Numbered from the stretch's first letter, positions 8,404 through 31,879 are shown. The stretch is DNA of 58,227 nt from Flavobacteriales bacterium (GCA_020847755.1 JADLBK010000018.1:1-58227), one strand, 5' to 3'. The notes: a model not told the origin generated them from the sequence alone. Numbers and translations: made by a program.

Positions 8404-9179
8404 CAGAAGGTGGGGATCAGGGCGAGGAAGTCAGGCATCTTGCGGCGCGATACGGGGATCATCGCTCCGTTGTCCAGCACGGCCATGTTGCCTTCGCCGC
8501 GGCTGAAGGCTCGAAGGTGCTCGAGATTGATGATGTATGATTTATGGACGCGGAAGAAGCGCTTCGGGTCCAGGTTGTTCTCGAACACCCGGATGTGCTT
8601 GCTGCTGATCTGCCGCTTGCCGTCGCGCGTATGGATGGTGGTGTAGCTGTCGCTGGCCTCCAGGTAAAGGATGTCCTCGTGCCGTACCAAGGTGAGCCCG
8701 TCGCGTCCGGGCACGGCCATGCGCTTGCTCAAGGGCGAGGCGGGGTCGAGCAGCAACGCCGCGATGGCCCCGGTCTGTTGCGGTGCGGCCGTGGGATCCG
8801 ACGTCATTCGACGAAGCTTCGAAGACGCCCGCTTGAGCTCCTCCACGTCAATCGGTTTCTCCAGGTAGTCGAGGGCGTTCTCCTTGAAGGCCTGCAGCGC
8901 ATATTCGTAGTAAGCGGTGGTGAACACCACCGGCAGCTCCTGGCCTTGCAGGGAGCGAAGCAGGGCGAAACCATCCTCGCCCGGCATCTTGATGTCCAGG
9001 AACAGCGCCTGAGGATGTTCCGTCGCGATCAGCTCGCGCGCCTCCTGGGCGCTTCCGGCCGAGCCCACCACCATCAGGTCGGGGCAGTGCTCCTCCAGCA
9101 TCATCCGCAGGTTCTCCCGGGCGTCGGGTTCGTCGTCCACGATCAGTACACGCATGGCCGATGGGTTTGGTGGGCTCAA
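8403..9179 (-). CDS. LytR/AlgR (LytTR) family response regulator
   Basis: The receiver starts MRVLIVDDEPDARENL. C-terminal LytTR domain (FFRVHKSYIINLEHL). Its stop overlaps the kinase ATG (TGATG). Confidence 0.92.
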   Translation of the reverse strand: MSPPNPSAMRVLIVDDEPDARENLRMMLEEHCPDLMVVGSAGSAQEARELIATEHPQALFLDIKMPGEDGFALLRSLQGQELPVVFTTAYYEYALQAFKENALDYLEKPIDVEELKRASSKLRRMTSDPTAAPQQTGAIAALLLDPASPLSKRMAVPGRDGLTLVRHEDILYLEASDSYTTIHTRDGKRQISSKHIRVFENNLDPKRFFRVHKSYIINLEHLRAFSRGEGNMAVLDNGAMIPVSRRKMPDFLALIPTF

Positions 9180-9266
9180 GCTAGGGCGCGCCCGCGGTGG
9201 TTCTCAGGCCCGTCGCCTGACCGGTGCGTGCGATCGAGCGGACCGTCATCCCGGTCGTGTGGACCG

Positions 9267-10040
9267 TCAGCGGACCCGCTCGAGGAACTCGCCCACGCGC
9301 TCGCGTGCGATCGGCACCCGCCGTCCGTCGCGGAGCACGGCCCAGTGACCATCGTCGCGCAGGTATTCGCGCAGGTGCTCCAGGTTCACGATGTGTGAAC
9401 GGTGCACACGCAGGAACACGGCCGGGTCCAACAGCTCCTCGTACACGCGCAGGGTGCGGGTGTCCAGGTAGCGCGTGCCATCGCTGAAGTGCAGCTGCGT
9501 GCAGTTGCCCTCGGCCTCCAGGTGGCTGATGGTGCGCGGATCGAAGAGCTTGAAGCCTTTGGCGTGGTCGATCACGATGCGGCCCGCGGGCAGGGAGGCC
9601 TCCCGCACGGCGGCGTTCAATCTCTCGCGGTATGCCTGGGCCTCGGCCGGGCGTTCATGCAGTTCGCGCACCCGCGCGAGGGCCTTCATCACCGCCGCGC
9701 GCAGCTCATCGGGGTCGATCGGCTTCAACAGGTAGTCCACCGCATGGGTGTGGAAGGCCTGCAGCGCGTAGTCCTTGAAGGCGGTGACGAAGATGACGAG
9801 CGCTCGGAGGTCGCGGAGCTCGGCCAGCAGGTCAAGGCCCTCTGTGCCGCTGGGCATGCGGATGTCCAGGAACAGCAGGTCGGGATCCAGCTCCGCGATG
9901 CGTTCGCGCGCCTTCGCTGGTCCATCGGCCGTACCCGAGACCTCCACCTCGGGGCAAAGCTCCTCCAGCATCAGCCGCAGGTTCTCCCGGGCCGGTTCCT
10001 CGTCGTCCACGATCAATGCCCGCACCTGCCGCGACCCCAT
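9267..10040 (-). CDS. Second LytTR family response regulator (no adjacent kinase)
   Basis: Start taken at MGSRQVRALIVDDEEPARENL (ATG 10040). LytTR domain FLRVHRSHIVNLEHL. Paralog of the 8403..9179 gene. Confidence 0.9.
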   Translation of the reverse strand: MGSRQVRALIVDDEEPARENLRLMLEELCPEVEVSGTADGPAKARERIAELDPDLLFLDIRMPSGTEGLDLLAELRDLRALVIFVTAFKDYALQAFHTHAVDYLLKPIDPDELRAAVMKALARVRELHERPAEAQAYRERLNAAVREASLPAGRIVIDHAKGFKLFDPRTISHLEAEGNCTQLHFSDGTRYLDTRTLRVYEELLDPAVFLRVHRSHIVNLEHLREYLRDDGHWAVLRDGRRVPIARERVGEFLERVR

Positions 10041-10355
10041 GACGGCGAAAATAGCGGCACCGCCGGAGCGACCGTTCTCCACTTCGCCGCCACCGTTTCC
10101 CGGTTCGGGCTGGCGATCGGGCGAGGAGCGTTGTAGGTTGGGGTCTCCATCGAACGCAAACCCCTTGTTGCCATGGCTTCCACGAACTCCCACAGCAGGC
10201 TCTGGATCTTCTCGGACCAGGGCAGTTGAACCGCGCAGTGCTCATGTCAGGTTTTGGTGTGGAGGGTCGGTCCGCCGGGTGGCGGACCGGCCCTCCGGCG
10301 TTCTTCGGGAACCCTTTGGCCGGTGGCGGCGTACAACGGCGCGAAGAACCGGCCC

Positions 10356-14127: not shown

Positions 14128-14218
14128 CAAGACTCAAGACACAAGGCGCAAGGCTCAAGCAACAAGGTGGGGCGGTCTTGTGACATGGAACTTGGGTCTT
14201 GAAACTTGTGTCTTGTAT
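14128..14218. repeat. Dyad-symmetric heptad array: (CAAGnnn)x6, a 7-nt spacer, then (CTTGnnn)x6
   Basis: CAAG at 14128, 14135, 14142, 14149, 14156 and 14163. CTTG at 14177, 14191, 14198, 14205 and 14212, with CATG at 14184. All pairs are symmetric about 14171/14172. Confidence 0.8.
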
Positions 14219-14230
14219 TTGGGCGTGCCC

Positions 14231-14310
14231 CTCGCAAAGCCTCGGGTCGGGCTATCCGCAGTAGTCCTCGCTCGCAAAGCCTCGCTGTGGGCTACTTGCT
14301 GCTATCCCTC
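14231..14310. repeat. Tandem ~40-bp imperfect direct repeat in the intergenic region
   Basis: The 14-mer CTCGCAAAGCCTCG occurs at 14231 and 14271, each time followed by a GGGCTA-containing segment. The region ends in GCTATCCCTCACGC. Confidence 0.7.
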
Positions 14311-14330
14311 ACGCGGCCGATCTTCACCCT

Positions 14331-17622: not shown

Positions 17623-18381
17623 ATGGGCAACATGAAACTTACACTCAAGATCTGGCGCCAGAGCGGTCCCAACGACAAGGGCCGCATCGTGGACTACCCG
17701 GTCAACAACGTCTCCGAGGACATGTCCTTCCTGGAGATGCTGGACGTGCTGAACGACCAGCTGATCCGCGAGGGCAAGGACCCGGTCGCCTTCGACCATG
17801 ACTGCCGCGAGGGCATCTGCGGCATGTGCAGCCTCTTCATCAATGGCGAGCCCCATGGCCCGGGCCGTGGCATCACCACCTGCCAGTTGCACATGCGGAA
17901 GTTCAAGGATGGGGATACCATCTTCATCGAACCATGGCGCAGCGCGGCTTTTCCCGTGATCAAGGACCTCTCCACCAACCGCAGCGCCTTCGATCGCATC
18001 CAGGCCGCCGGCGGCTTCGTGAGCGTGAACACCAGCGGCAACCTGGTGGACGGCAACGCGGTGCCCATCCCGAAGGATGATGCCGACAAGGCCTTCGACG
18101 CAGCCACCTGCATCGGCTGCGGTGCCTGCGTGGCCACCTGCCCCAACGGTAGCGCCATGCTCTTTGTGGCTGCCAAGGTGAGCCAGTTCGCGCTGCTGCC
18201 CCAGGGCCGCCCCGAGGCCAAACGCCGCGCATTGGCCATGGTGGAGCAGATGGACAAGGAGGGCTTCGGCAACTGCAGCAACACCGGCGCCTGCGAAGTG
18301 GAATGCCCCAAGCAGATCAGCCTTGAGCACATCGCCCGATTGAACCGGGAGTACCTGGCGGCGACGGTGACGAAGGAGTGA
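17623..18381 (+). CDS. sdhB: Succinate dehydrogenase/fumarate reductase iron-sulfur subunit
   Basis: 252 aa. Cluster motifs [21 protein letters not shown] and [12 protein letters not shown]. Confidence 0.95.
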
Positions 18382-18509
18382 GCCCGCTCCATCACGAGAA
18401 TGTGCGAAGGGCTGTCATCGACGGCCCTGCGCTTTTCCGTCCATTCTGTCGATCCGGCCATCCAAGTGCCGAACGTTGCATCATCGGCCGTCCCGGAGCT
18501 TCGTGTCAC

Positions 18510-18599
18510 ATGCCCATCACCTCCAGACTCCCCCACGTCGGCACCACCATCTTCACGGTGATCCGCATGCTGGCCATTGAGTGTGGCGCATTGCCCTAA
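18510..18599 (+). pseudogene. Orphan 5' fragment (29 codons) of a YbdL-type aminotransferase gene
   Basis: MPITSRLPHVGTTIFTVIRMLAIECGALP*. Positions 18528-18562 are identical over 35 nt to 20111-20145 in the intact gene. Confidence 0.8.
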
Positions 18600-18604
18600 C
18601 TTTG
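18597..18604 (+). promoter_or_regulatory. Candidate -7 box TAACTTTG for the DUF433 gene
   Basis: TAnnTTTG match at the end of fragment 1 (its TAA stop is part of the box), 19 nt upstream of the ATG at 18623. Confidence 0.4.
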
Positions 18605-18622
18605 TTCATCAAGCCGTTCGCC

Positions 18623-18829
18623 ATGACCTATTTGATGGAGCGCATCACCGTTGACCCGCAGGTCTGTGGAGGTCGGGCGTGCATCCGTGGCTTGCGGATC
18701 CGGGTGACGGATATTCTTGATCTGTTGGCAGCCGGCCTTTCCGCCCAGCAGGTGGTCGAGGAGCTGCCGGACCTGGAACTGGCGGATGTGGAGGCGGCGC
18801 TGAAGTTCGCCAGCGGCCCCTTGGCGTAG
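18623..18829 (+). CDS. DUF433 domain protein (antitoxin-like, HTH)
   Basis: MTYLMERITVDPQVCGGRACIRGLRIRVTDILDLLAAGLSAQQVVEELPDLELADVEAAL matches the DUF433 signature (P..C.G.P.I.GTRI.V..I). Confidence 0.8.
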   Translation: MTYLMERITVDPQVCGGRACIRGLRIRVTDILDLLAAGLSAQQVVEELPDLELADVEAALKFASGPLA

Positions 18830-18834
18830 TTTTG
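18827..18834 (+). promoter_or_regulatory. Candidate -7 box TAGTTTTG for the antitoxin-RelE pair
   Basis: TAnnTTTG match that includes the DUF433 TAG stop, 20 nt upstream of the ATG at 18854. Confidence 0.4.
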
Positions 18835-18853
18835 ACCGACCGACCACTGAACC

Positions 18854-19048
18854 ATGAAAGGAGTGACCGTGCTCTATGACGAATCCCGCAAGAAGCGGCT
18901 CGTGCAGATCGATATGGAGGTGGTGGTGCGCAAGCGCGAGGAATTGGAGGAAATGCTTGACCTGTTGGTGGCGGAGAGCCGCAAGGACGATGAGATGGTT
19001 CCTTGGGAGAAGGCCAAGGCCATGCTCAAGAAAGCAGGCAAGCTCTGA
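18854..19048 (+). CDS. Putative antitoxin of the RelE/ParE module
   Basis: 64 aa, charged and helical (MKGVTVLYDESRKKRLVQIDMEVVVRKREELEEMLDLL...). Its stop overlaps the toxin ATG (TGATG). Function is inferred from position. Confidence 0.6.
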   Translation: MKGVTVLYDESRKKRLVQIDMEVVVRKREELEEMLDLLVAESRKDDEMVPWEKAKAMLKKAGKL

Positions 19049-19305
19049 TGTACGAGCTGTTCATCAGTCGTCAGGCGATCAAGGACCTTGAAGCCCTGCC
19101 GACGAATGCGGTCGTCAAGGTCACCAAGGCCATCGAGGGTTTGCGCATGGAGCCTCGCCCGGCCGGATGCAAGAAGCTGAAGGGCCAGCGTGAGTATTTA
19201 TGGCGGATCCGCGTTGGCAACTATCGGATCATCTACGACATCAAGGACAAGATCCGCGTGGTCGAGGTGCGCGAGGTCGGCGATCGCAAGGAGGTGTATC
19301 GTTGA
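19048..19305 (+). CDS. Type II toxin, RelE/ParE family
   Basis: 85 aa. MYELFISRQAIKDLEALP...LKGQREYLWRIRVGNYRIIYDIKDKIRVVEVREVGDRKEVY is the classic RelE/ParE pattern. Confidence 0.85.
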   Translation: MYELFISRQAIKDLEALPTNAVVKVTKAIEGLRMEPRPAGCKKLKGQREYLWRIRVGNYRIIYDIKDKIRVVEVREVGDRKEVYR

Positions 19306-19315
19306 GAACGCTGCC

Positions 19316-19462
19316 ATGTCGAACTCTGGAACGGCAAAGCCTGATCTGGTCGGAGATCTCCCCTACGTCGGCACCACCATCTACACGGTGATGAGCAAGC
19401 TGGCGGCCGAGTGCGGCGCCATCAACCTGAGCCAGGGCCGTACCTTTGAGGCATGCGGCTAA
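19316..19462 (+). pseudogene. Second orphan 5' fragment (48 codons) of a YbdL-type aminotransferase gene
   Basis: MSNSGTAKPDLVGDLPYVGTTIYTVMSKLAAECGAINLSQG then out-of-family RTFEACG*. Positions 19358-19438 align to 20111-20191 with about 8 mismatches in 81 nt (manual alignment). Confidence 0.8.
19441..19448 (+). promoter_or_regulatory. Candidate -7 box TACCTTTG for the MNT-HEPN pair
   Basis: TAnnTTTG match starting 3 nt after the end of aminotransferase homology and 5 nt before the ATG at 19453, which implies a leaderless or very short leader mRNA. Confidence 0.35.
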
Positions 19463-19746
19463 CACCGGAAGAGATAGAAGGTCTGAAGTCCTATTTTGCC
19501 ACCAAGCCGGTGGTGAACGCGTACCTCTTTGGTTCGTTCGCACGCGGCGATGCCGATGAGAAGAGCGATGTGGACATCCTTGTCGATCTGGACCGTACTG
19601 TTCCGTTCGGCCTCGGTTTCTTCGGCATGATCGGCGACCTGCAGGAACTCCTGGGCAGGCAGGTTGACGTGGTCACGCGCGAGGCGCTATCGCCGCATGT
19701 GGAGAAGTACGTGGAGCGCGACCTACTTCCCATCTATGCGCGATAG
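19453..19746 (+). CDS. Nucleotidyltransferase (MNT) antitoxin of a HEPN/MNT module
   Basis: 97 aa. GSFARGDADEKSDVDILVD is the minimal NTase G[SG]x9-13Dx[DE] motif. Confidence 0.85.
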   Translation: MRLTPEEIEGLKSYFATKPVVNAYLFGSFARGDADEKSDVDILVDLDRTVPFGLGFFGMIGDLQELLGRQVDVVTREALSPHVEKYVERDLLPIYAR

Positions 19747-20092
19747 GCTCGGGGATCGCATCCGTGTCCAGCACATGTTGGAATCCATCGAGATGACCGA
19801 GGGCTTCATGAAAGGCCGTTCGATGGATGACCTCTCGAAGGATGCCACGCTCCGTTTCGCGGTGGTGAAGCAGCTGGAGGTCATTGGCGAAGCGGCTTCG
19901 CGGATCACACGGGAGACATTGGATGCTGAGCCGTCCATTCCATCGAGGCAGGTTGTTCTGATGCGCCATGTGCTCGTGCATGACTACTATCGCATCGACG
20001 TTCCAACCGTCTGGAACACTGTGACGAACGATCTTGGACCGCTGAAGCAAGCATTGCTGCGGTTGCTGGGATCGCTGCCCCCCGCTCCCTGA
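19736..20092 (+). CDS. HEPN (DUF86) domain toxin
   Basis: 118 aa. Overlaps the MNT gene by 11 nt. The R(x4-6)H-like motif MRHVLVHDY is typical of DUF86. Confidence 0.85.
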   Translation: MRDRLGDRIRVQHMLESIEMTEGFMKGRSMDDLSKDATLRFAVVKQLEVIGEAASRITRETLDAEPSIPSRQVVLMRHVLVHDYYRIDVPTVWNTVTNDLGPLKQALLRLLGSLPPAP

Positions 20093-21235
20093 ATGGCCCT
20101 TCCAACCAAGCTCCCCCACGTCGGCACCACCATCTTCACGGTGATGAGCCAGCTCGCGCAGGAGTGCGGCGCCATCAACCTCAGCCAGGGCTTCCCGGAC
20201 TTTCCCATCGACGAGGCGCTGATCGATCTGGTGGAGAAGGCCATGCGCGACGGGCACAACCAGTATGCGCCCATGCCCGGCGTGCCCGCCCTGCGCGAGG
20301 CGATCGCCGCCAAGGTGCAACGCCTGTACGGCCATGCGTATGATCCGGAGACCGAGGTGACGGTGACAGCGGGCGGCACCCAGGCCATCTTCACAGCGTT
20401 GGGCGCCGTGGTGCATCCTGGCGATGAAGTGATCATCATCGACCCGGCCTACGATTGTTATGCCCCCACGGTGGAGCTGTTCGGCGGGAGGCCTGTGCAT
20501 GTGCGGCTCGGCAGCGACATGAAGTTCGATGCGGAAGCGGTGAAGGCGGCGATCACACCCCGCACACGCATGCTGATGATCAACACGCCGCACAACCCGG
20601 CGGGGACCATCCTGCGCGAGGCCGACATGCGCCGCATCGCCGACCTGCTGCGCGGCACCGACATCGTGCTGTTGAGCGATGAGGTCTATGAGCACCTGGT
20701 GTTCGAGAACGAGGTGCATGCCTCCGTGGTGCGGTACCCCGAGCTGCGCGACAGGGCCTTCGTGGTGTTCAGCTTCGGCAAGGTGTTCCACGCCACCGGC
20801 TGGAAGATGGGCTACGTGCTGGCACCGAGGGCGCTGATGGCCGAGTTCCGCAAGGTCCACCAGTTCAACGTGTTCAGCGCCAGCACGCCGGTGCAGCATG
20901 CACTTGCGAACTACCTGAAGGACCCCCTCCACTACGAAGGGGTGTCGTCGTTCTATGAGGCCAAGCGCGACCGTTTCCTGATCGGCCTGCACGCTTCGCG
21001 CTTCGAGCCCCTGGCCTGCGAGGGCAGCTACTTCCAGCTTGCGGACTACAGCGCCATCAGCGACGAGCCCGACACCGACTTCGCCAAGCGCCTCACCCGC
21101 GAGTTCGGCGTGGCCGCCATCCCGATCAGCGTCTTCTACAAGGAACCACCGCCGGGCCAGCGCATCCTCCGCTTCTGTTTCGCCAAACGGGATGATACAC
21201 TGGACGAGGCCATCGACAAGCTATGCGAGATCTGA
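20093..21235 (+). CDS. ybdL: PLP-dependent aminotransferase, methionine/glutamine transaminase YbdL-like
   Basis: 380 aa. LPHVGTTIFTVMSQLAQECGAINLSQGFPDFP...NQYAPMPG...SFGKVFHATGWKMGY (PLP lysine region). The ATG directly abuts the HEPN stop (TGAATG). Confidence 0.9.
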   Translation: MALPTKLPHVGTTIFTVMSQLAQECGAINLSQGFPDFPIDEALIDLVEKAMRDGHNQYAPMPGVPALREAIAAKVQRLYGHAYDPETEVTVTAGGTQAIFTALGAVVHPGDEVIIIDPAYDCYAPTVELFGGRPVHVRLGSDMKFDAEAVKAAITPRTRMLMINTPHNPAGTILREADMRRIADLLRGTDIVLLSDEVYEHLVFENEVHASVVRYPELRDRAFVVFSFGKVFHATGWKMGYVLAPRALMAEFRKVHQFNVFSASTPVQHALANYLKDPLHYEGVSSFYEAKRDRFLIGLHASRFEPLACEGSYFQLADYSAISDEPDTDFAKRLTREFGVAAIPISVFYKEPPPGQRILRFCFAKRDDTLDEAIDKLCEI

Positions 21236-22002
21236 AGCTCACCCTGGTGCAACGCATGCTCCACTGGGAGGATGCGGCGGCCAACCGTTCCCAGTTCCAG
21301 GAGGTCATGGCCGCGCTGCGGGGTACGACCGACCTCATCGTGCTGCCCGAGATGTTCACCACCGGCTTCAGCATGCGCAGCGCGGAGCTGGCCGAGACCA
21401 TGGACGGCGCCACCGTACGCTGGATGCGCGAACAGGCCAACACCCTGGACGCGGCCCTCTATGGCAGCGTGATCATCAAGGACGGCGGCAGGTGCTTCAA
21501 CCGCGGGCTTTTCGTGCAGCCGGATGGACAGGTCGCGGTGTACGACAAGCGCCACCTGTTCCGCTTCGCCAGCGAAACGGATCACTACAGCCCGGGGCGC
21601 GAGCGGATGATCGTGGAATGGCGCGGCTGGCGCATACTCCTGCAGATCTGTTTCGATCTGCGATTTCCGGTGTTCGCCAGGAACCGGGGCGACTATGATG
21701 CGATCCTCTACGTGGCCAACTGGCCCGAGGCCCGCCGCTTCCCCTGGAGCCAGTTGCTCATCGCACGCGCCATCGAGAACCAATGCTTTGTGGCCGGGGT
21801 CAACCGCGTGGGCATGGACGGCAAGGGCATCCACTACAGCGGGGATCGTGTGGTGATCGATCCCCGCGGTGCGGTGCTGGCCGCCGTGCAACCGTCCCAA
21901 GAAGAGGTCCTTACGACCATGCTCGACCGTGCGGGCCTTGAGGACTTCCGGACCAAGTTCCCCGTGGCGCTGGAGGCCGACGACTTCGAACTGCGCCTCT
22001 GA
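21223..22002 (+). CDS. yafV: Nitrilase-superfamily amidohydrolase, omega-amidase YafV-like
   Basis: 259 aa. LVLPEMFTTGF (catalytic Glu), KRHLF (Lys), ICFDLRFP (Cys). Overlaps the aminotransferase stop by 13 nt. Confidence 0.88.
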   Translation: MRDLKLTLVQRMLHWEDAAANRSQFQEVMAALRGTTDLIVLPEMFTTGFSMRSAELAETMDGATVRWMREQANTLDAALYGSVIIKDGGRCFNRGLFVQPDGQVAVYDKRHLFRFASETDHYSPGRERMIVEWRGWRILLQICFDLRFPVFARNRGDYDAILYVANWPEARRFPWSQLLIARAIENQCFVAGVNRVGMDGKGIHYSGDRVVIDPRGAVLAAVQPSQEEVLTTMLDRAGLEDFRTKFPVALEADDFELRL

Positions 22003-22006
22003 TCGG

Positions 22007-25000
22007 CTAGCGGATGATGGTCACGTGCCCCATGCGCTCCTGCTCCATCCCCACGCCGCCCTGCTCGTCGTCCACGAAGCGGTAGCGCATCTTCCACACG
22101 TAGACCTCGTTGGCCACCTCGGCCCCGTGCGAGGTCCCGTCCCATTGGTCCGTCGGGCTGTTGGTCTGCCAGAGCACCCCGCCCCAGCGGTCGAACACGA
22201 TGAGCTCGAGGGTGGCCACGTTCTTGCCCACCGGGCCCCAGGAATCATTGATGCCGTCGGCATTGGGGGTGAAGGTGTTGGGCACGTAGATGCTCGCCGG
22301 GCAGAACTCGTTCACCTTCACTGAATCGCGCAGCCCGCAGTTGAACGTGTTGGTGATGTCCACGAAGTACCAGCCATATGCTCCGGCCAGGATGATCTGG
22401 GAGGTCTGCCCGGAGCTCCAACCGAAGCTGGATCCCGGATTGCCGGCGTCGATCACCACGAAGTGCGGCTCCTCGTCCAGGCAGGTGAAGATCTGGTGCA
22501 CCGGCAGGCTGCTCGGCCGCGGATTGAACCCGGCCACCACCGCGTCGCTCGCGCTGCAATGGCCGTTGTCCACGGTGACCATGTAGGTGCCGTTCTGGAT
22601 CACATCGATGGTGCGAGTGACCGCTCCCGTGCTCCAGGCGTAGGTCGTACCCGGGTTCCCGGCATCGAGCGTCAGCACATCCCCCTGGCAAAGAGCCGTG
22701 TCCGGGCCGAGGTCCACCACCGGCCAGGGCACGAAGGTCACCACCGCAGCGAACGATGCGCTGCAGCCCTGAGGCGTGGTCACCAGCACCGTGTAGGTGC
22801 CGGCAGCGGTGGGTGCGATCGTGCGTGTGATGGCGCCGGTGCTCCAGGCGTAGCTGGAACCGGCGTTGCCCGCATCGAGCAGCACGGGTTCACCGGTGCA
22901 TTCGGTGACGTCGACCAGGACATCATCCGGTCCGGGTAGCACGGTGAGCGTCACGCTGTCCGACGCCTGGCAGGCGATGTTGCTGACCACCACGGCGTAG
23001 GTGCCGCTCTGCGCGGGGCTGATGCTCTGTGCGGTGGCTCCGGTGCTCCATAGGTAGGTGCTGCCGGGATTTCCCGCGTCGAGCACGACTCCGGAACCGG
23101 TGCAGACCACGGTATCAGGACCCAGGTCGACCTCAGGTGGGGCCACCAGGGTGACCTGGGCCTCGAAGGTGTCGCTGCAGCCCTGGGTGTTCGTCACCAG
23201 TACGCTGTAGGTACCGCTCGCGGTCACCGTGATCGACTGGCCCGTCGCGCTGGTGCTCCACAGGTAGCTGCTGCCCGCATTGCCCGCGTTCAGGGTCACC
23301 GGGGTGGTGGCGCATGCAGTGAGGTCCTGCAGCTGGTCCACAGGCAGCGGCGCGAAGGTGAGCGTGACCGCATCCGTGCTCACGCAGCCCTGGGGGCTCG
23401 TCGCGGTCGCCGTGTAGGTGCCGCTCCCGTTCGCCTGGAACTGCTGGCCCGTGCTTCCATTCCCCCACACCACCGTATTGCCCGGGCTGTTGGCTTGGAT
23501 CAGATAGGATGTGACACCGCAGAACAGGCTGTCCGGTCCCAGGTCGATCACCGGTAGCGCGTTCAGCACGACGTTGAAGGTCTTGGTGGTCTGGCAGCCC
23601 TGAGCGTCGGTGATCTCCACCACGTATGTGCCTGTCGCGTTCACTGTCACCGTTTGCGTCGTCGGACCATGGGTCCAGTCGTAGCTGCTTCCGGGGAAGC
23701 CGGCGTCAAGCACCAGGCTTTGCCCGGCACAGCCCGCGATGTTCACCGGGTTCACCATGCTGTCGAACGCATCGATGATGCGAACGGAGTCCGTCACGGA
23801 GCACCCGTTCGCATCGGTGATGGTCACTTCGAAGAGCATGGTGGTGTCGGCCATCACCGTCGGGGAGGCGATGGTTCCGGAGTTGAGCAGGAAGGCGGGG
23901 GTCCAGGCGATGCTGAACGGCGCGGGCACGTTGTGCTGCACATCGAGCTGGAACCCGAGCGCATTGCACAGCGTGGTGTCCTCCGTGGCGGCGATGCTGT
24001 AGGCCGTGGTCACGGCGATGGTGATCGAGGCCTGCGCGCTGCAGCCGGTCTGTGTGTCGGTGAGGGTCGCCGTGTAAGTGGTGGTGGTGCCCGGGGTGGC
24101 CACCGGCGTGGGTGACGTGGCGCTGCTGAGGCTGCCGGCGTTGTTCCACACGAGCTGCAGTGTGCCGGTGCCCTGGATCACGGCGTTCAGTTGGCTGCTC
24201 TCGCCCTGGCAGAGGGTGAGGTCGCTCGCGCTCAGAACGAGGCCCAACGGAGGACCCACCGCGACCGTCACCGCATCGCTGGCGGTGCACCCGATGTTGT
24301 TGGTGGCCGATGCCGTATAGGTCGTCGTGGCCGATGGGCTCGCGACGGGCCCGGAGATGCTGCTGTTGTTCAGGCTGCCGTTGTTCGGGGTCCAGCTCCA
24401 TTGGATGCCCTGGCCGGAACTGGCGGTGGCCTGCAGCTGGGTGGATCCGCCGCCGCACAGGAGCACGTCGCTGCCCGCGTTGATGGTGAAGGCCGGAGCG
24501 ACCTGGATGAACACGGGATCGCTGAACGTGCAGCCGGTCCCACTGGTGACCTGCACGGTGTACCAGGTGTCGGCCGGAGGGGTGGCCACCGGACTGGCGC
24601 TTGTCGGGTCGTTCAGTGTGGCACCGGGCGACCACAGCAACGGAACCCCGGTGTTGTCCACTCGTGTCAGCGTCACGTTGTCCAGCGCCCACACGTCCTG
24701 TGCGGCACCGCTGTTGGCCAGCTGTCGCCAACGGAAGTGCGTGGCGGCGGACCATGCGGCGGGCGGAATGGCGAGCGTGATCGGGGTGAAGACCGGATAC
24801 TGCGCCTCGTTCAGCGTGTGGAACGCGGTCCAGGCCACGCCGTTCAGGCTGTACTCCACCACCACGTCCTCGCCCGGCTCAGCTCCGTCGCAGGGTGCGG
24901 TGCCGGCCGAGATCATGAGACTGAAGATCAGGCTGCCACCTTGCGGAACGTTGAGCGCATTGGTGCGGGCCTGGCGTGCACCTGCGGCATTGAACAGCAG

Positions 25001-25741
25001 GGCGTTGCCGTTGACCGCGCCGCAGGTGCCGCTCACACTGCCGCCCTGGACCTGGGCCCACAGCGACGATGTACCAATGTCCAACGGATCGAACCCGATC
25101 ACCCGCTGTGTGCGCGTGCCCAATTGCACCGCTTCTCCAAGACAGATGATGCTGTCGGCCGTGGTGGCCTCCACGCTGTGCACGGTGTTCGGCGTCACCT
25201 CCACGAGCACGCTGTCCGTGGCGCTGCCACAGCCTAGCGGACTCGTCACGTTCAGCTTGAACCACGTGGTGGTCATCGGATAGGCCACCGGGTCGGGGAT
25301 GGAGGGGTTGCTCACCAGGGCCGCCGGGGTCCAGCTGAGCGTGTAGGCGTTGGGGTCCAGGTTGGGTTGTGCGCCGAGCTGCACGGGCTGATATTGGCAG
25401 ATGGTCGTGGCGTTGGCTCCGTTGGCGGTGGCCTCCACGGTCACGGGTACCTGGAGGCCCACATGGAAGGTGAACTCCAGCGGGCAGGACGAGCCGGGGG
25501 CGGTACCGGAAATCGTATAGGAATCGTTCGTCGTGGGCGTGAAGGTGTAGCTCAACCCATTGGCGAGCACCACGCCGGGTGCGCTGGCGGCCTCCCATTG
25601 CGGGTTGTCCATGGGCTCTGGCGAGGTGAGCGTCACCGGGCCGTTCACGCACAGCAGCGAGTCCTGCACCAGCACCGGCACCACCGTGGCGTTGGCGTTG
25701 AACGCGTAGCTCTCGCCCGTGCCGAAACCGGTGGCGTACAC
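22007..25741 (-). CDS. C-terminal 1244 codons of a giant T9SS type B (CHU_C) adhesin, in frame with 25814..27010 across one TGA
   Basis: Ends with a gliding-motility-type C-terminal domain (VPNTFTPNADGINDSWGP...VYVWKMRY...GHVTIIR). Eight ~70-aa CxG...LDAGNPGS.Y.WSTGA.T..I modules. The 'start' at 25741 is only a GTG in the same frame as the upstream ORF. Confidence 0.85.
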   Translation of the reverse strand: MYATGFGTGESYAFNANATVVPVLVQDSLLCVNGPVTLTSPEPMDNPQWEAASAPGVVLANGLSYTFTPTTNDSYTISGTAPGSSCPLEFTFHVGLQVPVTVEATANGANATTICQYQPVQLGAQPNLDPNAYTLSWTPAALVSNPSIPDPVAYPMTTTWFKLNVTSPLGCGSATDSVLVEVTPNTVHSVEATTADSIICLGEAVQLGTRTQRVIGFDPLDIGTSSLWAQVQGGSVSGTCGAVNGNALLFNAAGARQARTNALNVPQGGSLIFSLMISAGTAPCDGAEPGEDVVVEYSLNGVAWTAFHTLNEAQYPVFTPITLAIPPAAWSAATHFRWRQLANSGAAQDVWALDNVTLTRVDNTGVPLLWSPGATLNDPTSASPVATPPADTWYTVQVTSGTGCTFSDPVFIQVAPAFTINAGSDVLLCGGGSTQLQATASSGQGIQWSWTPNNGSLNNSSISGPVASPSATTTYTASATNNIGCTASDAVTVAVGPPLGLVLSASDLTLCQGESSQLNAVIQGTGTLQLVWNNAGSLSSATSPTPVATPGTTTTYTATLTDTQTGCSAQASITIAVTTAYSIAATEDTTLCNALGFQLDVQHNVPAPFSIAWTPAFLLNSGTIASPTVMADTTMLFEVTITDANGCSVTDSVRIIDAFDSMVNPVNIAGCAGQSLVLDAGFPGSSYDWTHGPTTQTVTVNATGTYVVEITDAQGCQTTKTFNVVLNALPVIDLGPDSLFCGVTSYLIQANSPGNTVVWGNGSTGQQFQANGSGTYTATATSPQGCVSTDAVTLTFAPLPVDQLQDLTACATTPVTLNAGNAGSSYLWSTSATGQSITVTASGTYSVLVTNTQGCSDTFEAQVTLVAPPEVDLGPDTVVCTGSGVVLDAGNPGSTYLWSTGATAQSISPAQSGTYAVVVSNIACQASDSVTLTVLPGPDDVLVDVTECTGEPVLLDAGNAGSSYAWSTGAITRTIAPTAAGTYTVLVTTPQGCSASFAAVVTFVPWPVVDLGPDTALCQGDVLTLDAGNPGTTYAWSTGAVTRTIDVIQNGTYMVTVDNGHCSASDAVVAGFNPRPSSLPVHQIFTCLDEEPHFVVIDAGNPGSSFGWSSGQTSQIILAGAYGWYFVDITNTFNCGLRDSVKVNEFCPASIYVPNTFTPNADGINDSWGPVGKNVATLELIVFDRWGGVLWQTNSPTDQWDGTSHGAEVANEVYVWKMRYRFVDDEQGGVGMEQERMGHVTIIR
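22300..23975 (-). repeat. Coding tandem repeat: eight ~210-bp (70-aa) Ig-like modules (approximate bounds)
   Basis: Recurrent LDAGNPGS(S/T)Y.WSTGA.T..I.V...GTY.V.V......C...D...V protein motif. Bounds estimated from protein positions. Confidence 0.7.
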
Positions 25742-25813
25742 ATGGATGCCCTGCGGAGCGGTGACACGGTGCGTGCCCGTGGTGATCGTGCGGCTGGCAT
25801 GCGACCAGGTGGG

Positions 25814-27010
25814 TCACGCGGCGAAGGCCGTGAAGCTGCCGGCAGGGACCACCGTACCATCGACGGCCACCTGGCCCACTACGGCGGTGGGCACCACGAG
25901 CTCCACCCGGTGGCCGGTGATCTGCGGCGAGCTCACGGTGCTGAACGTGGTGGAGGTGGTGGTGCGGTCGTCCGGTTCGATCACCACCATCGAAGGGTCG
26001 CCCGCGTTGGCGCAGTTGTACCCTTCGTAGATGACCACCACGGAGACCGGTGCCGTGGCGTTGATGCAGGCGGTGCCCGCCAGTCCGTTGATCTGATGCG
26101 ATTGACCTGCGTTCAGCGGGATGGGCGCACCCCCGTTCACCGTGACGTTGGTGCCGTTCTGGCCGGCGAGCACCCTCACCGTCGCGTTGGCGATCCCGCT
26201 CGGCAGGAAGGTGCGGAAACTCGTGCCCCATCGCTCCAACGGGATCATCTGTTCCACCAGATGGTCGCAGGCCGGGCAGCCCACGGGCACGTTGGCGCAC
26301 ATGCTGCCGCTGAGCACCGCGAAGGGGCGACAGGGGCCGCTCGCCGCCGTGGCGCGCACACGGGTGCCGGTGAGGTCGAGCGATGACAGGGCCGATTGCA
26401 CCTGGTAGGTCTGCCCCTGGTCCAGCAGCACCGTAAAGGGGACGCCGGCGGGCCGGCCTCCGGCCGTGTTCACGCTGGGGGTGATCTCCACCTCCGTGTC
26501 GTCCGTGGTGGCCACGACGAGCAGCTCGCTCTTGTAGAACTCGTTGAAGCCCGGCAGCCCGCGGTAGGCCTCCACAAAGTAGTCGGTGCCCAAGGCCTCC
26601 ACAGGAAGAACCTGCGTGCCATCGTGCGTGTAGCTCTGGTAGCTGATGGCGGTGACGGCCACTGGAGCGGCGGCCTGGATCCGCACACCCTTGCCGGTCA
26701 CGGTCTCGGAACCGACATGCTCGGCGGTGGTGGGCACGTTCACCTGCACCACCGCGTTCGCCGCCACGCTGAAGGCCTGGCTCCAACCGGTCTGCGGTAT
26801 GCTCACCGTACCACTGGTCGCGGTGGGCGCACTGATGTACAACCGGGTCTCCTGGGCGCCGTAGGCGTTCTGCATGAAGCCGGTCCACAGCTCCGTGCCG
26901 AGGGTCGGCATCGGGCCGTTCACCTGGGCCTCGACGGTGCTGAGCCACAGGATGGCCAGGGCGCCGAGCAGCGTCGGGCGGATGCGGAAGATGGGGGTCG
27001 GGGCGGTCAT
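25814..27010 (-). CDS. N-terminal part (signal peptide + IgGFc-binding-like N-terminal domain) of the same adhesin, ending at an in-frame TGA
   Basis: Start taken at MTAPTPIFRIRPTLLGALAILWLSTVEAQ (ATG 27010). Collinear with residues ~30-420 of the 27131..31735 paralog. TGA at 25816-25814. Confidence 0.8.
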   Translation of the reverse strand: MTAPTPIFRIRPTLLGALAILWLSTVEAQVNGPMPTLGTELWTGFMQNAYGAQETRLYISAPTATSGTVSIPQTGWSQAFSVAANAVVQVNVPTTAEHVGSETVTGKGVRIQAAAPVAVTAISYQSYTHDGTQVLPVEALGTDYFVEAYRGLPGFNEFYKSELLVVATTDDTEVEITPSVNTAGGRPAGVPFTVLLDQGQTYQVQSALSSLDLTGTRVRATAASGPCRPFAVLSGSMCANVPVGCPACDHLVEQMIPLERWGTSFRTFLPSGIANATVRVLAGQNGTNVTVNGGAPIPLNAGQSHQINGLAGTACINATAPVSVVVIYEGYNCANAGDPSMVVIEPDDRTTTSTTFSTVSSPQITGHRVELVVPTAVVGQVAVDGTVVPAGSFTAFAA

Positions 27011-27083
27011 GTCCACCGAAGAGCGGGGTGGTTCGCGCCGTGCATACGCGATCCGCCGCTCAAGGTTCCTGGCCCGGAACGGC

Positions 27084-27110
27084 GAAGGGCCGGGAGAACC
27101 CCGGCCCTTC
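27084..27110 (-). terminator. Terminator-like hairpin between the two adhesin paralogs
   Basis: Perfect 10-bp stem GAAGGGCCGG/CCGGCCCTTC with a 7-nt loop, 21 nt downstream of the stop at 27131. Confidence 0.5.
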
Positions 27111-27130
27111 ACAACGATGTGCGTCGTGCG

Positions 27131-30100
27131 TCAGCGGATCAGGGTCACATGGCCCACGCTCTCCTTCTCGGCCCCGATCATGCCGTTCACGTCCTCGATG
27201 AAGCGGTATTTGAGCTTCCACACGTACACCCCGTCCTGGACATCGGTGCCGTTGCGCTTCCCGTTCCAGCCCACTTCCGCATCCTTCCCGGCGAAGATCT
27301 CCTCGCCCCAGCGGTCGAAGATCTTCATCTCCATGGTGGCGATGTTGTACCCGCTCGGCATGAACAGGTCGTTCACCCCGTCGCCGTCCGGGGTGAAGCT
27401 GTTCGGAACGAAACACTGCGGCGGGCAGTATTCCACCACCTCGATGGAGTCGGTGATGGTGCAGTTCAGTGGGGTCGTGATGTCCACGATGTACCAGCCG
27501 TACGTGTTCACCTCGATGGTCTGGGTCTCCTCGTCGGTGCTCCACAGGTAGGTGCACCCGGGGTTCCCGGCGTCCAACAGGGTCTTCTTCGGCCAGTGGT
27601 CCAGGCAGATGATCTGCTCCTCCTCCGCGATGATGTTCGGCAGCGGGTTGAAGATCACCTCCACCGTGTCGCGCGTGGTGCAGTAGCCGTTGAAGACGTC
27701 CACCCACACGTCCTGCGTGGTGGTGACGAAGGTGGTCTGCGTGGTGGCCCCGGTGCTCCAGATGAAGGCCTGACCCGGGTTGCCCGCGTTCAGGTCCATG
27801 GTGTCGGTGTCGCACAGCGCCGTGTCCGGACCGAGGTCCACGATGGGGAAGGGGATGATGTCGATCACCGCATTGGCGGAATCGACACACCAGGTCGGCG
27901 TGGTCACCACCACCGAGTAGGTCGCGCTCACACTGTCCACCTGGATGCTCTGGGTCGTCTCGTTCGTGCTCCAGAGGTAGCTGCTGCCCGGGTTCCCGGC
28001 GTCCAGGGTGATCGTCTCGCTGATGCACACGGTGGTGTCGCGCAGGTCGATCACCGGCAGCGGGTCGAACACCACGTTGATGCTGTCGCTGTTCACGCAA
28101 TCGTTCCCATCCGTCACCTCCACCCAGTACAGGTCATCCGTGGTCACCGTGATGGCCTGGGTGATGGCGGTGGTGTTCCAGAGGTATTGGCTGCCGGGGT
28201 TGCCGGCGTCCAGCGTCCAGTTCTGACCGATACAGAGCGAGGTGTCAGGACCCAGTACGATCACCGGCAGGGGGTCCACGGTCACGTTCGTGGTGAAGGT
28301 GGCCTGGCAGCCCTGGGCGTCGGTGATGACCACCGTGTACGCACCGGCCGTGGATACCGTGATGGTCTGGGTGGTGGCGGTGGTGCTCCAGGCATACGTG
28401 CTTCCCGGATAGCCCGCATCGATCACCATGCTCTGACCGGCGCACAAGGACGAATCCGAGATGAAGGTGAGGTCGTCGAAAGGCACGTTGATGTTCACCG
28501 TGTCGCGCGCCGAACAGCCCAGGGCGTCCTGCACCACCACGATGTACTGGGCGGTGGAATCGAAGGTGATCACCGGGTTGGCGGTGTTGGCGCCCACCAA
28601 CTGGTTCGTCGGGGTCCAGCTGATGATGGCGCCAGGCACATTGTGTTGCACGTCCAGGACGAAGCCCACCGGGTCGCAGAGGGAGGTGTCCGCGGTGGCG
28701 TTCACCACGTAGGCCGTGCTCACCGTGATGTCGATGTCCTCCGTGAGCACACATCCACTGATGGTGTCCGTGACGGCCAGGACATAGGTCGTGGTGGTCA
28801 GCGGCGTTGCTGTCGGGTCCTGGACAGCGGCGTCATTGAGCGATCCCGCCGGGGTCCAGCTGTACACCAGGTTGGTGGTGTTACCGGCGATGGTGGCGTC
28901 CAGCAACGTGCTCTCACCCTGGCACAGGTCGTCGTCCGGTGTGGTGATGGTGAGCCCCAGGAGCTGGTTCACCGTGATGGTCACACTGTCCGTGGCGGTG
29001 CAGCCCTGGCCGGTGGTCACCGTCACGAAATACTCCGTGGTGGAGGGCGGTGTGGCGATGGGCGATTGCACGAAGGTGGCCGAGAGCGTGCCGTTGTTCG
29101 GCGTCCAGGTCCAGGTGTGGTTGGTGCCCGAGCTCGGAGCGGCGTTCAACTGGATGCCGCCCAGGTCGCAGATCGTGGTGTCCGGCGTCATGGCGATGCT
29201 GAACGGAGCCCCCACCTCGATGTACACCGAGTCCTGGTAGCTGCACTGGGTCCCGGTGAGCGTGCTTTGCACGTAATACCAGCCCGTGCTCGTCGGGTAG
29301 GCCATCGGGTTGGTGATGTTCGCCGCGCTGAGCGTGGCGGCCGGTGACCAGTTGATGGTGAGGCCGGTGGTGCCCTGAGCGCCGATGGCCACGTTGTCGA
29401 GGCTCCAGTTGTCGTTGCCCGGTCCGCTGCTGTTCAACTGCCGCCACCGGAAGAGCGTCGCGGCCGTTTGTGCGGGCGGCGGAATGGGCACGCTCACCGT
29501 CGCGAAGTTCGGGTACAGGTATTCCCACAACGTGGTCATCACCGTCCATGCACCGCCGCCATTGGTGGAGTACTCCAGCACCACGTCCTCGCCGGGGTCC
29601 GCGTCATCGCAGGGCGGGGCCGCCGCACCGATCTTGATGGCGAAGCTCACGCTTCCCCCATTGCTCACGTTCAAGGCGCTCGTCGTGGCCTGGCGTGGAT
29701 TCACCCCGTCGAAGTAGAGCGCATCGCCGAACACCGAGCCGCACGCATTGCTGATGGAGCCGCCCTGGATCGAGCTCCACATCGGCGAGAACACCAGGTC
29801 GAAGGGGTCCTCGGCGATGATCTGGTGCACTTGCAGGTCCAGTTGTGAGGAGTCCCCCAGGCACAGCGCGTCCACGGCCGTGCTGGCCTCATAGATGAGG
29901 ACATCGCCCTGGATCACATCGATGTACACACTGTCCAGGCTCACGGCACATCCGTTCAAGGTGCTCACGCTCACGTAGAACCAGCCGCTCTGGGTGGGTG
30001 TGGCGACCGGGTTCTGTAGGGAGCCATCGTTCAATTGCGGATCGGGCCACCAATTGTAGAGGTAGGTGCCCGGCGGGTCCACGACCACGTTCAGCTGTAC

Positions 30101-31735: not shown

Positions 31736-31879
31736 GGTCGTCAGGTTCGTTCGGGTCTCCAAGGTCGGATCGTGCTGAAAGGTATCGCGGGGATCGGGAA
31801 CCGGTCCTGCACGGCCGATCGTGGACCGAGTACATGACGCGGAGGTTGCTCCGTACGTTGCCAGCGTCCAAAGAACTCT

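Follow-up and report, generated by a model that had tools for sequence, protein, structure and literature searches.

How chromosomal toxin-antitoxin (TA) modules that lack mobility genes come to spread is poorly understood. The closest described class for the locus analyzed here is insertion with long target duplication, which Nobusato and colleagues are said to have reported in 2000 for restriction-modification (RM) gene units, and which has since remained a descriptive class without a mechanism, tied to restriction enzymes. Insertion into a gene start is known from SXT/R391-type elements of about 100 kb, which carry their own integrase, use a short defined att core and integrate into the 5' coding end of prfC, supplying new first codons and transcription. 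Furuta et al. (2010) defined the RM class by direct repeats of more than 30 bp that are single copy in the empty site, by the lack of a mobility gene and by a size below 20 kb (PMC2853133), and such units are flanked by target duplications of 30 to ~420 bp (PMC2853133; PMC3874152). The minimal mobile elements (MMEs) of Neisseria are alternative sets of 1-3 genes at one syntenic site, also without mobility genes (Saunders & Snyder 2002; PMC1797815), and are thought to be exchanged by homologous recombination in their flanks (PMC1797815). Experimentally, donor DNA with partial repeats has been found to yield repeat-bordered duplications through alternative pairing (Johnston et al. 2013, PMC3784515).

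Here we describe a locus in a Flavobacteriales bacterium at which RNase-type TA modules, and other cargo as well, show the long-target-duplication footprint. Our preferred reading, to which we give about an even chance of being correct, is an old, species-fixed array of two addiction-type cassettes that were inserted with long target duplication, probably by homologous recombination, and that captured the operon behind them.

Results

Three copies of a gene start bracket two TA cassettes

The 5' end of a methionine aminotransferase gene occurs three times in the window (the whole 58,227-nt stretch of DNA that was analyzed), as two fragments and the intact gene, at the positions given by a first-pass annotation (Table 1). 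Copy 1 translates as MPITSRLPHVGTTIFTVIRMLAIECGALP followed by a stop, and its 35-nt core is exactly that of the intact gene (copy 3), as had been claimed. Copy 2 opens with 14 unrelated codons. The next 81 nt (19358-19438), which correspond to aminotransferase codons 7-33, align with copy 3 at 90% identity, with 8 mismatches as previously estimated, and amount to about 27 homologous codons, not the 41 first reported. The similarity of the fragments is far above chance, with E-values of 3e-5 and 6e-9 in tblastn and of 3e-16 and 3e-25 in nhmmer. The first six codons of the copies do differ, as noted at the outset, but this is uninformative because the segment varies widely among intact orthologues, whose mean identity there is only 52.6%. 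A donor for the odd N-terminus of copy 2 (MSNSGTAKPDLVGD, Y for H and F) was sought among 199 loci, and no aminotransferase among them has it. Peptide-level selection on the fragment ORFs was rejected, substitutions in the fragment cores being mostly non-synonymous.

Table 1. Features of the array and its flanks, in window coordinates.
Feature	Position	Strand	Evidence or remark
sdhB, succinate dehydrogenase Fe-S subunit; conserved left flank of the hotspot	17623..18381	+	Pfam Fer2_3/Fer4
Post-sdhB hairpin, GGGCTGTC-atc-GACGGCCC, then T-rich tail	18409..18437	+	native intergenic
GAGCTTCG, degenerate remnant of native aminotransferase -7-like box	18496..18503	+	
Copy 1, aminotransferase 5' end	18510..18599	+	29 codons and stop; core 18528-18562
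TAACTTTG, Bacteroidetes -7 box	18597..18604	+	18 nt from box end to DUF433 ATG
DUF433 protein, antitoxin-like	18623..18829	+	Pfam PF04255, E = 4.6e-24
TAGTTTTG, -7 box 5' of the 64-aa/RelE-ParE pair	18827..18834	+	
64-aa ORF, putative RelE/ParE antitoxin	18854..19048	+	position and 1-nt stop/start overlap
RelE/ParE-family toxin	19048..19305	+	Pfam ParE_toxin, 41 bits (cut-off 23)
Copy 2, 48-codon ORF	19316..19462	+	core 19358-19392, 2 mismatches to the 35-mer
TACCTTTG, -7 box forming the conserved cassette 'linker'	19441..19448	+	begins 12 nt before MntA ATG
MntA-type nucleotidyltransferase, type VII antitoxin	19453..19746	+	Pfam NTP_transf_2, E = 3.8e-16
HepT-type HEPN RNase toxin	19736..20092	+	Pfam HepT-like, E = 1e-21
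Methionine aminotransferase, YbdL type, intact (copy 3)	20093..21235	+	NCBIfam NF006569, 599 bits (cut-off 420); core 20111-20145
YafV-type omega-amidase/amidohydrolase	21223..22002	+	NCBIfam PRK10438, 307 bits (cut-off 249)

Copy 1 is the original in-situ 5' end, truncated by cassette 1 and not itself cassette-borne, because the 128 nt upstream of it align with the intergenic region of relatives' empty sites. It retains the native leader and hairpin, and its pre-core segment is identical at 15 of 18 positions to native alleles L007 and L198. The hairpin aligns with that of four empty-site relatives (L001, L002, L004 and L005); it was not flagged by a simple terminator scan, the counts of which equaled shuffle level. 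SdhB itself shares 88-96% amino acid identity with the relatives' proteins encoded at the equivalent position.

The inserts, of about 0.75-0.83 kb, appear to be two small TA units, DUF433 with the 64-aa ORF/RelE-ParE pair and MntA-HepT. The labels originally given to the DUF433, ParE/RelE, MNT (NTP_transf_2) and HepT genes all score above Pfam cut-offs. No cognate toxin gene adjoins the DUF433 gene. The 64-aa ORF, which has no match in Pfam, NCBIfam or PADLOC, overlaps the toxin gene in the sequence TGATG at 19046-19050, and the toxin scores 26.7 bits against TIGR02385 (cut-off 27.9). MntA carries the GSxxRG...DxD motif (GSFARG...DVD in translation) and HepT reads RHVLVH, that is, Rx4H; as an adjacent MNT nucleotidyltransferase and HEPN RNase with Rx4-6H, the two are predicted to form a type VII pair. 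We treat them as family members and not equivalogs because their NCBIfam equivalog scores fall under cut-off (51 bits for MntA, cut-off 60). PADLOC assembled no known defence system, only MntA matching, to candidate-system models. The HEPN stop abuts the aminotransferase start as first described, TGA directly adjoining ATG (TGAATG), but the HEPN start had to be corrected to the ATG at 19736, which makes mntA and hepT overlap by 11 nt; hepT is called as a 118-aa gene in other assemblies. Among known RNA elements, only a chance sub-threshold match to sR14 was found in the array (20 bits; gathering score, 38).

The array is fixed in its species, and the junction varies among relatives

The same array is present in at least eight independent assemblies, from different assemblers and samples, so it is no artefact and is fixed in the species. 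Two short Logan contigs do end within the copy-1 core, so the repeat does break assembly graphs, as it would if a metagenome assembler had chained strain variants through the shared 35-mer. We nevertheless regard the chance of such a chimera as negligible: beyond the independent assemblies, the fragments are truncated and decayed, they run into cassette genes and not into other aminotransferase alleles, and homologous single-cassette loci exist in other MAGs, one of them on a 1.6-Mb contig. Contigs with identical MntA, ParE or SdhB gave solely the same array and no strain-level empty site.

Among related Flavobacteriales MAGs, the sdhB-aminotransferase junction is empty, carries a single cassette or is otherwise filled, with at least 10 different occupants; the hotspot with serial occupancy proposed by the first-pass annotation is thus borne out by these states. 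Empty junctions, about 14-120 nt long, were found in L001, L002, L004, L005, L006, L084, L150, L163, L180 and L191. A single MntA-HepT cassette with its fragment occupies the site in L008, L088 and L190, and an eroded fragment is left in L130. Elsewhere a fragment accompanies a PIN gene (L087/L219 and L167), a USP gene (L082) or a gene for a secreted protein (L102). The linker, fragment end and TGAATG junction are common to the MntA-HepT carriers, L130 included, and the PIN cassette of another MAG has both junction designs in common with the array. Moreover, one fragment end, at codon 33, is common to the MntA-HepT, PIN(+) and PIN(-) cassettes; to explain this, one must assume a site preference or a common ancestral scaffold in which the cargo was replaced.

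The MntA-HepT block is old, its synonymous divergence being about that of host genes. Vertical descent with loss could for this reason explain much of the distribution, and an account with no horizontal movement can be built on it: one or two ancient in-situ rearrangements (a tandem duplication, or a long target-site duplication by staggered breaks and fill-in), then descent, cargo replacement and repeat-mediated losses. Fixation within the species and the shared design of all MntA-HepT carriers agree with this account, and popped-out sites would resemble empty ones. However, the carriers are scattered over the host-gene tree, interspersed with empty or otherwise filled lineages, which would call for many independent precise losses of addictive modules. 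Divergence also disagrees between window and L190, with third-position identity of 66-70% in the cassette versus 50% in the flanks. The post-core part of copy 2, in nearest-neighbour comparisons of 18-46-nt segments, matches other alleles better than the window's own gene, and descent alone leaves two stacked cassettes, each with a fragment, unexplained. We therefore consider purely vertical descent rather unlikely. As for timing, third-position identity rules out recent transfer for most carrier pairs, and recent or continuing activity finds no support, with an array identical in all population assemblies and MntA-HepT as diverged synonymously as host genes.

The 35-nt core is the most conserved block of the gene

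The first-pass annotation had proposed site-specific recombination at the 35-mer as one of two routes. The 35-mer would then be the att core of a recombinase, of the tyrosine or serine family, whose gene lies elsewhere in the genome, and the cassettes integrase-less CIME- or integron-like units that accreted in tandem. Several observations are in keeping with this. The window and L008 are homologous from the left edge of the core onward, across the fragment, MntA, HepT and TGAATG, and not to the left of the core; most fragments keep the core at 94-100% identity while in most of them post-core identity has fallen to 57-76%; accretion typically yields tandem arrays of att-flanked units; and one fragment end serves three cargo types. 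On the other hand, the core would stand out anyway: no block of the aminotransferase gene is more conserved, and in 198 of 351 (56%) pairs of aminotransferase alleles it is the longest one that is identical. No inverted repeat was found in it, and the repeated segment, folded as single-stranded DNA on both strands, gave hairpin or attC-like structures no better than shuffles (z = -0.28 to +1.5). Duplication lengths vary from ~45 to 130 nt across events.

A similar layout recurs at other genes. In L005, L001 and L006, a DUF1801 gene shows the fragment-cassette-intact-gene arrangement with repeats unrelated to the 35-mer, which makes a dedicated att site unlikely, and the pepP 3' end in L005 contains a similar repeat-bracketed insertion, again with unrelated repeats. 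Furthermore, Pfam searches of all cassette genes and 20 mid-sized ORFs of the ~43 in the window found no recombinase or transposase (six ORFs had no Pfam hit of any kind), and the gene tables, covering +/-6 kb, and those of relatives list none. The statement that the window holds no recombinase thus stands for this set, and we regard the site-specific route as quite improbable. The other proposed route, homologous recombination with donor DNA, fits better and is the more probable.

Promoter boxes accompany the cassettes

The genes downstream of the array are an aminotransferase and a YafV-type amidohydrolase, as annotated, both above NCBIfam cut-offs; the latter gene overlaps the aminotransferase stop, and the two form one operon. 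In most relatives, TAG(C/T)TTCG begins 14 nt before the aminotransferase ATG. No -7 box lies upstream of the intact gene in the window, where the native box survives as a degenerate remnant in front of copy 1. The left edge of each cassette bears a Bacteroidetes -7 box; the window has 10 matches against 2.3 expected, three of the 10 inside the array. The box in front of MntA is the same, and lies at equal distance, in 5 of 5 MntA-HepT carriers, and it lies at ~11 nt in the PIN cassette. A sigma-70 promoter scan was uninformative, its model type being wrong for Bacteroidetes. Because the cassettes carry their own boxes, we infer that the operon is most probably driven by cassette promoters and not by the old aminotransferase promoter, and that its genes are now, most probably, the last to be transcribed in the MntA-HepT operon. 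Read-through into the aminotransferase gene, expected from the outset, is likely on this promoter-motif evidence.

Discussion

We propose that these cassettes were most probably inserted by homologous recombination, with no dedicated recombinase. A cassette would travel together with a copy of the target gene's 5' end, either as an excised circle that integrates at the chromosomal 5' end through one Campbell-type crossover, or through a double crossover in which a donor fragment mispairs with the recipient's intact gene. Each insertion would leave a truncated gene start of ~80-100 nt on the left and a complete gene on the right. In keeping with exchange between alleles, the window's gene body from nt 54 groups with non-carriers (nearest neighbour, 18-46-nt segments). 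Crossovers, later gene conversion and repeat-mediated loss would fall mainly in the 35-nt core, since diverged alleles share no longer run of identical sequence. Repeated insertion would give stacked cassettes, and since an incoming unit could recombine at either the intact gene or a fragment already in place, the two cassettes may have arrived in either order. Against this explanation weigh the invariance of the array within its population and the synonymous divergence of the cassette, described above. A left arm of 35 nt is near the lower limit for RecA-dependent exchange, and a true staggered-break target duplication, with both copies derived from the recipient, would yield an identical anatomy and, at this divergence, may be what happened; in L190, for example, both copies begin with MA.

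The resemblance to RM units inserted with long target duplication is close: in both cases a small unit that is selfish or addictive, and that encodes neither integrase nor transposase, lies between repeats of tens to hundreds of bp, the length of which varies between events. Here, the repeats around the inserts measure 62-81 nt and are single copy in empty-site relatives, and the sub-kilobase inserts come without a mobility gene in the set searched. Unlike RM units, however, the cargo consists of TA modules with RNase toxins (DUF433, RelE/ParE, MntA/HepT) and other small genes, so the array is a variant of the class and not a member as originally defined, and DNA cleavage by the cargo, suggested by Furuta et al. 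(PMC2853133), cannot be the driver. The duplicated target also differs in being a gene start, and the target gene is consequently preserved and re-promoted. In addition, two units are stacked and unrelated cargos have junction designs in common. In the literature searched, we found no description of TA modules inserted with long target duplication.

Other systems share parts of this design. As in MMEs, alternative content without mobility genes occupies one syntenic site, but duplicated target fragments and stacking are no part of the definition of MMEs, and natural transformation is documented for Neisseria and not for these Flavobacteriales. Integron arrays, CALINs and XerCD-dependent dif modules likewise hold small promoter-proximal cassettes, often TA, that are repeat-bounded and recombinase-free. 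Yet the sdhB-aminotransferase interval has no adjoining IntI and attI, no recombinase or intI having been found in the set searched, and no attC-like folded sites; its repeat is the coding sequence of the downstream gene and differs between hotspots, and its cassettes carry their own promoters. Compared with SXT/R391 elements, the units are tiny (~0.75 kb) and without a recombinase. The merodiploidy of S. pneumoniae provides a parallel in repeat-bordered duplications from a partly repeated donor, although those span 100-900 kb and are bordered by IS copies, not sub-kilobase cassettes (Johnston et al. 2013, PMC3784515).

A bolder reading, which we think unlikely, is that the cassettes represent an undescribed class of recombinase-free, homology-targeted units that move by RecA-dependent crossover at ultra-conserved gene starts. 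Such a unit would combine a ~33-codon mimic of a conserved gene start, a -7 box, small cargo (usually a TA pair) and a stop fused to the target ATG. They would form integron-like arrays by stacking, exchange cargo while keeping a common scaffold, and become entrenched by bringing the transcription of the housekeeping operon behind them under their control.

Returning to insertion with long target duplication by homologous recombination, the footprint spans TA and other cargo and recurs at other genes of the clade, which argues for a mechanism independent of cargo. The locus occurs naturally in empty, single, stacked and eroded states and with different cargo in a common scaffold, and it offers material to test homology-driven insertion. 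Each cassette brings its own -7 box and the aminotransferase-yafV operon has lost the one it had, and the probable capture would penalize imprecise loss of the cassette. By putting its own promoter in place of that of a housekeeping operon, a selfish module may in this way make itself difficult to lose.

Three copies of the aminotransferase 5' end in a fixed array

Reading the 17800-20500 region and listing its ORFs confirmed that the 5' end of the aminotransferase gene is present three times downstream of sdhB, as the first-pass annotation had proposed (Table). A repeat search of the window returned the copies as a single 81-nt family of three members, at spacings of 830 and 753 nt. Both fragments resemble the aminotransferase significantly, by tblastn (E = 3e-5 and 6e-9) and against an nhmmer profile built from intact 5' ends (E = 3e-16 and 3e-25), and chance similarity is therefore excluded. 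The 35-mer said to be identical between copy 1 (18528-18562) and the intact gene (20111-20145) is indeed so, and copy 2 carries it with 2 mismatches; the 41 homologous codons assigned to copy 2, however, are reduced to ~27, since its initial 14 codons are unrelated to the aminotransferase. Pfam confirmed sdhB, DUF433, ParE/RelE, MNT nucleotidyltransferase, HepT HEPN RNase, class I/II aminotransferase and CN-hydrolase, and NCBIfam models above cut-off identify the aminotransferase gene as a methionine aminotransferase and the CN-hydrolase gene as a YafV-type amidohydrolase. HepT starts at 19736, overlapping the MntA stop.

Contigs encoding exactly the window's MntA, ParE or SdhB were found in at least 8 independent assemblies (ENA, JGI, NCBI, Logan), and all of those long enough to span the junction show this same two-cassette array, including both fragment ORFs. 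The array is genuine and has become fixed in the population; it is ancient and without activity, and an artefact is exceedingly improbable. Two short Logan contigs (L217 and L218) stop ~176 nt past the sdhB stop, within the copy-1 core, as expected at a repeat. Short-read assemblies tend to break at the repeat, and such arrays could be hidden in fragmented MAGs.

The cassette genes (18581-20092) have a GC3 of 0.73-0.79, lower than the 0.85-0.89 of neighbouring core genes, which is consistent with foreign origin or weaker codon adaptation. The DUF433 gene (18623-18829) has no adjoining PIN/DUF5615-type partner, unlike its counterpart in the more distant relative L162, and may represent either an orphaned antitoxin or what is left of an older cassette.

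Table. Aminotransferase copies, comparable sites at other genes, and occupancy of the sdhB-aminotransferase junction in relatives
Feature	Location or loci	Detail
Copy 1	window 18510-18599	encodes MPITSRLPHVGTTIFTVIRMLAIECGALP, then stop
Copy 2	window 19316-19462	48 codons
Copy 3	window 20093-21235	intact gene
DUF1801 hotspot	L005 4597-6196; L001 3949-5424; L006 4137-5814; window 14159-14330	window site empty
pepP 3'-end duplication	L005 1941-2070 and 2714-2844	83-92% identity
Empty junction	L001, L002, L004, L005, L006, L084, L150, L163, L180, L191	~14-120 nt
Fragment, then MntA-HepT	L008, L088, L190	
MntA-HepT with eroded fragment	L130	
Fragment, then PIN gene	L087/L219; L167	plus strand; minus strand
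Decayed fragment, then USP gene	L082	
Fragment, then secreted-protein gene	L102	
Fragment-less occupants (several)		USP, macro domain, alpha/beta-hydrolase, VapBC-like genes, small ORFs

Junction occupancy and cassette anatomy in relatives

Scanning genomes with the aminotransferase and metagenomes with a 24-mer taken from the core yielded ~35 loci from related high-GC Flavobacteriales MAGs (72-87% amino acid identity). Occupancy of the junction is polymorphic: it is empty, holds a single cassette or is otherwise filled, which supports the earlier suggestion of a hotspot with serial occupancy. The cleanest single-cassette case, L190, reads sdhB, native leader, fragment, MntA, HepT, aminotransferase. 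A duplicated aminotransferase start was present in none of 163 outgroup loci (1.8 Mb). In L162 (1-1312), a DUF433 and DUF5615-like pair lies directly upstream of an aminotransferase start and adjoins a minus-strand IS200/RayT-like Y1 transposase gene, the sole mobility-type gene seen close to these junctions; its label as a transposase and the DUF5615 label come from reading translations and are putative.

Copy 1 is the gene's original start, left behind, because the 128 nt 5' of it can be aligned to the intergenic region of empty sites, post-sdhB hairpin and leader included, and its first six codons equal native alleles at 15 of 18 positions. The MntA-HepT blocks of the window and L008 become homologous at the left edge of the core and stay so across the remainder of the fragment, a short linker, the two genes and the TGAATG junction, whereas sequence left of the core is unrelated. 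MntA-HepT cassettes and PIN cassettes of either orientation share, to the nucleotide, one fragment end, which follows codon 33 (...AACCTGAGCCAGGGC). In L102 and L082 the fragment ends elsewhere, and the duplications are therefore long and variable. The complete PIN cassette of L219 repeats the MntA-HepT design, with a native-type leader, a perfect-core fragment, a promoter box, PIN and a 78-aa ORF ending in a stop that overlaps the start codon of the aminotransferase (GCATGATCC). The common codon-33 boundary and promoter box point to either one ancestral scaffold with later cargo replacement or a mobile scaffold. The 78-aa ORF (L219 5453-5689) is small and basic and lies 3' of the toxin gene, the reverse TA gene order, and the L219 aminotransferase has a 12-codon pre-core N-terminus (MIRTALARPTSK) beginning at the overlap with its stop.

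Conservation of the core and age of the cassettes

Within the 5' end of intact orthologues, conservation peaks in the core, with a mean pairwise identity of 91.6% compared with 83.6% after it and 52.6% before it, and in 198 of 351 allele pairs the longest stretch of identity anywhere in the 1143-nt gene includes at least part of the core. Most fragments keep 94-100% identity in the core, with post-core identity down to 57-76% in most cases; erosion is possible, as the eroded core of L130 illustrates. Because substitutions in fragment cores are mostly non-synonymous and the core is nonetheless kept, conservation acts on the DNA; repeated gene conversion from the intact copy, or exchange with it, would be expected to have this effect. 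No Rfam family matches the repeat above threshold.

At third positions of conserved four-fold codons, MntA/HepT are 46-70% identical and sdhB, aminotransferase and yafV 40-68% in the same genome pairs. The MntA-HepT block is therefore about as old as the lineage split. Duplication at a true staggered break, with vertical descent and loss thereafter, is in keeping with that age, although we regard it as rather unlikely. Carriers are dispersed over the host-gene tree among empty and differently filled sites, and in the window-L190 pair the cassette is 66-70% identical at third positions versus 50% for the flanks. From nt 54 onward the window's gene body groups with the non-carriers L152, L102, L001 and L002, and copy 2 post-core matches other alleles at 43 of 46 positions versus 40 of 46 for the window's own gene. 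These comparisons, made over short segments, favour at least some horizontal exchange with crossovers near the core.

The same layout at other genes

At a DUF1801 gene upstream of sdhC, L005 carries a short 5' fragment, a muconolactone-isomerase-like gene, an 81-nt 5' fragment (MAKANKTHRPAASFSAFIDTRPKEE, then stop), minus-strand HepT/MntA and the intact gene. L001 has the same content as L005 at this site, and in L006 an OmpA-like gene lies between a fragment and the intact gene. The pattern also occurs at gene 3' ends, since in L005 a 130-nt duplication of the 3' end of a pepP-like aminopeptidase gene brackets a 161-aa ORF. Neither the DUF1801 nor the pepP repeats are related in sequence to the 35-mer.

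Other repeats occur in the window. A 114-nt direct repeat (34081-34194 and 35523-35636; 96.5% identity) copies the last 38 codons (T9SS C-terminal sorting domain end, ...VRSVKALR and stop) of a 481-aa gene (34191-35636) immediately 5' of that gene, the copy's stop overlapping the gene's ATG (GTGATGAGG); this further gene-end duplication is far more recent than those of the aminotransferase. Two paralogous LytTR response-regulator genes in tandem (8403-10193) share ~70% nucleotide identity over ~320 nt. Most other direct-repeat families, in the window and in relatives, are internal repeats (~207-216 nt) of very large T9SS/CHU_C surface proteins (window 22007-31762).

Mechanism and relation to known systems

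[quoted passage not shown] Furuta et al. put forward cargo-mediated DNA cleavage as a possible driver of these insertions (PMC2853133). Here, in contrast, the cargos are RNase toxins and unrelated small genes, and the mechanism should therefore not depend on cargo. In the literature searched, we found no description of such insertion for TA modules. The sdhB-aminotransferase site behaves like a Neisseria minimal mobile element (PMC1797815).

The first-pass annotation offered two routes to the array. The 35-mer as an att-like site would call for a trans-acting site-specific recombinase. We consider this route improbable: the other hotspots have unrelated repeats, no unusual single-strand structure was found in the repeat, and, in line with the absence noted earlier, a search of the cassette genes, 20 further window ORFs and the gene tables for related loci turned up neither a recombinase nor a transposase. 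The second route, homologous recombination, is favoured by the geometry and by the indications of exchange near the core. The left copy has kept its native upstream sequence and is cut off at a fixed boundary, whereas the right copy is complete and has upstream only what the cassette supplies; this geometry is that of insertion-duplication by homologous recombination. If the gene's first ~33 codons travel with the cassette, left-truncated and right-complete copies would result, and pairing of a donor's fragment with the recipient's intact gene would let cassettes stack. Experiments have validated the alternative pairing of partly repeated donor DNA as an origin of repeat-bordered duplications (PMC3784515). 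Homologous recombination with a cassette-borne 5' end is thus our favoured mechanism, unproven and with about an even chance of being correct.

Cassette promoters and the aminotransferase-yafV operon

The 58-kb window contains 10 matches to the Bacteroidetes -7 motif TAnnTTTG, versus 2.3 expected, and three of these boxes (18597, 18827 and 19441, all plus strand) fall within the 1.8-kb array, each just 5' of a cassette gene. All five MntA-HepT carriers have a perfect box that begins 12 nt ahead of the MntA start codon, and in the PIN cassette it begins ~11 nt ahead of the PIN start. Because perfect boxes stand at a constant distance from the start codon and are few (1-3 in total per such locus), the conserved cassette linker is a promoter element; cassette transcripts are probably leaderless or nearly so. 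Across the window, boxes a few to ~45 nt 5' of start codons include 5379-5386 (minus strand), the three array boxes, 44557 and 45732, among other sites; these distances, with the native aminotransferase box at -14, suggest that mRNAs in this organism commonly have no leader or a very short one.

In most relatives the native box, TAG(C/T)TTCG, begins 14 nt before the aminotransferase ATG. This type of box is absent from all four aminotransferase genes that abut HepT; the box remaining 5' of copy 1 reads GAGCTTCG. Since the HepT-abutting genes lack the native box and the cassettes have boxes of their own, we infer from these motifs that the aminotransferase-yafV operon is most probably transcribed from cassette promoters, and the read-through proposed earlier agrees with the box positions. 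The array is a variant of a known, mechanistically unexplained class, with added interest from the stacking of its cassettes, from junction designs common to unrelated cargos, and from the probable transcription of a housekeeping operon by the cassette promoters.
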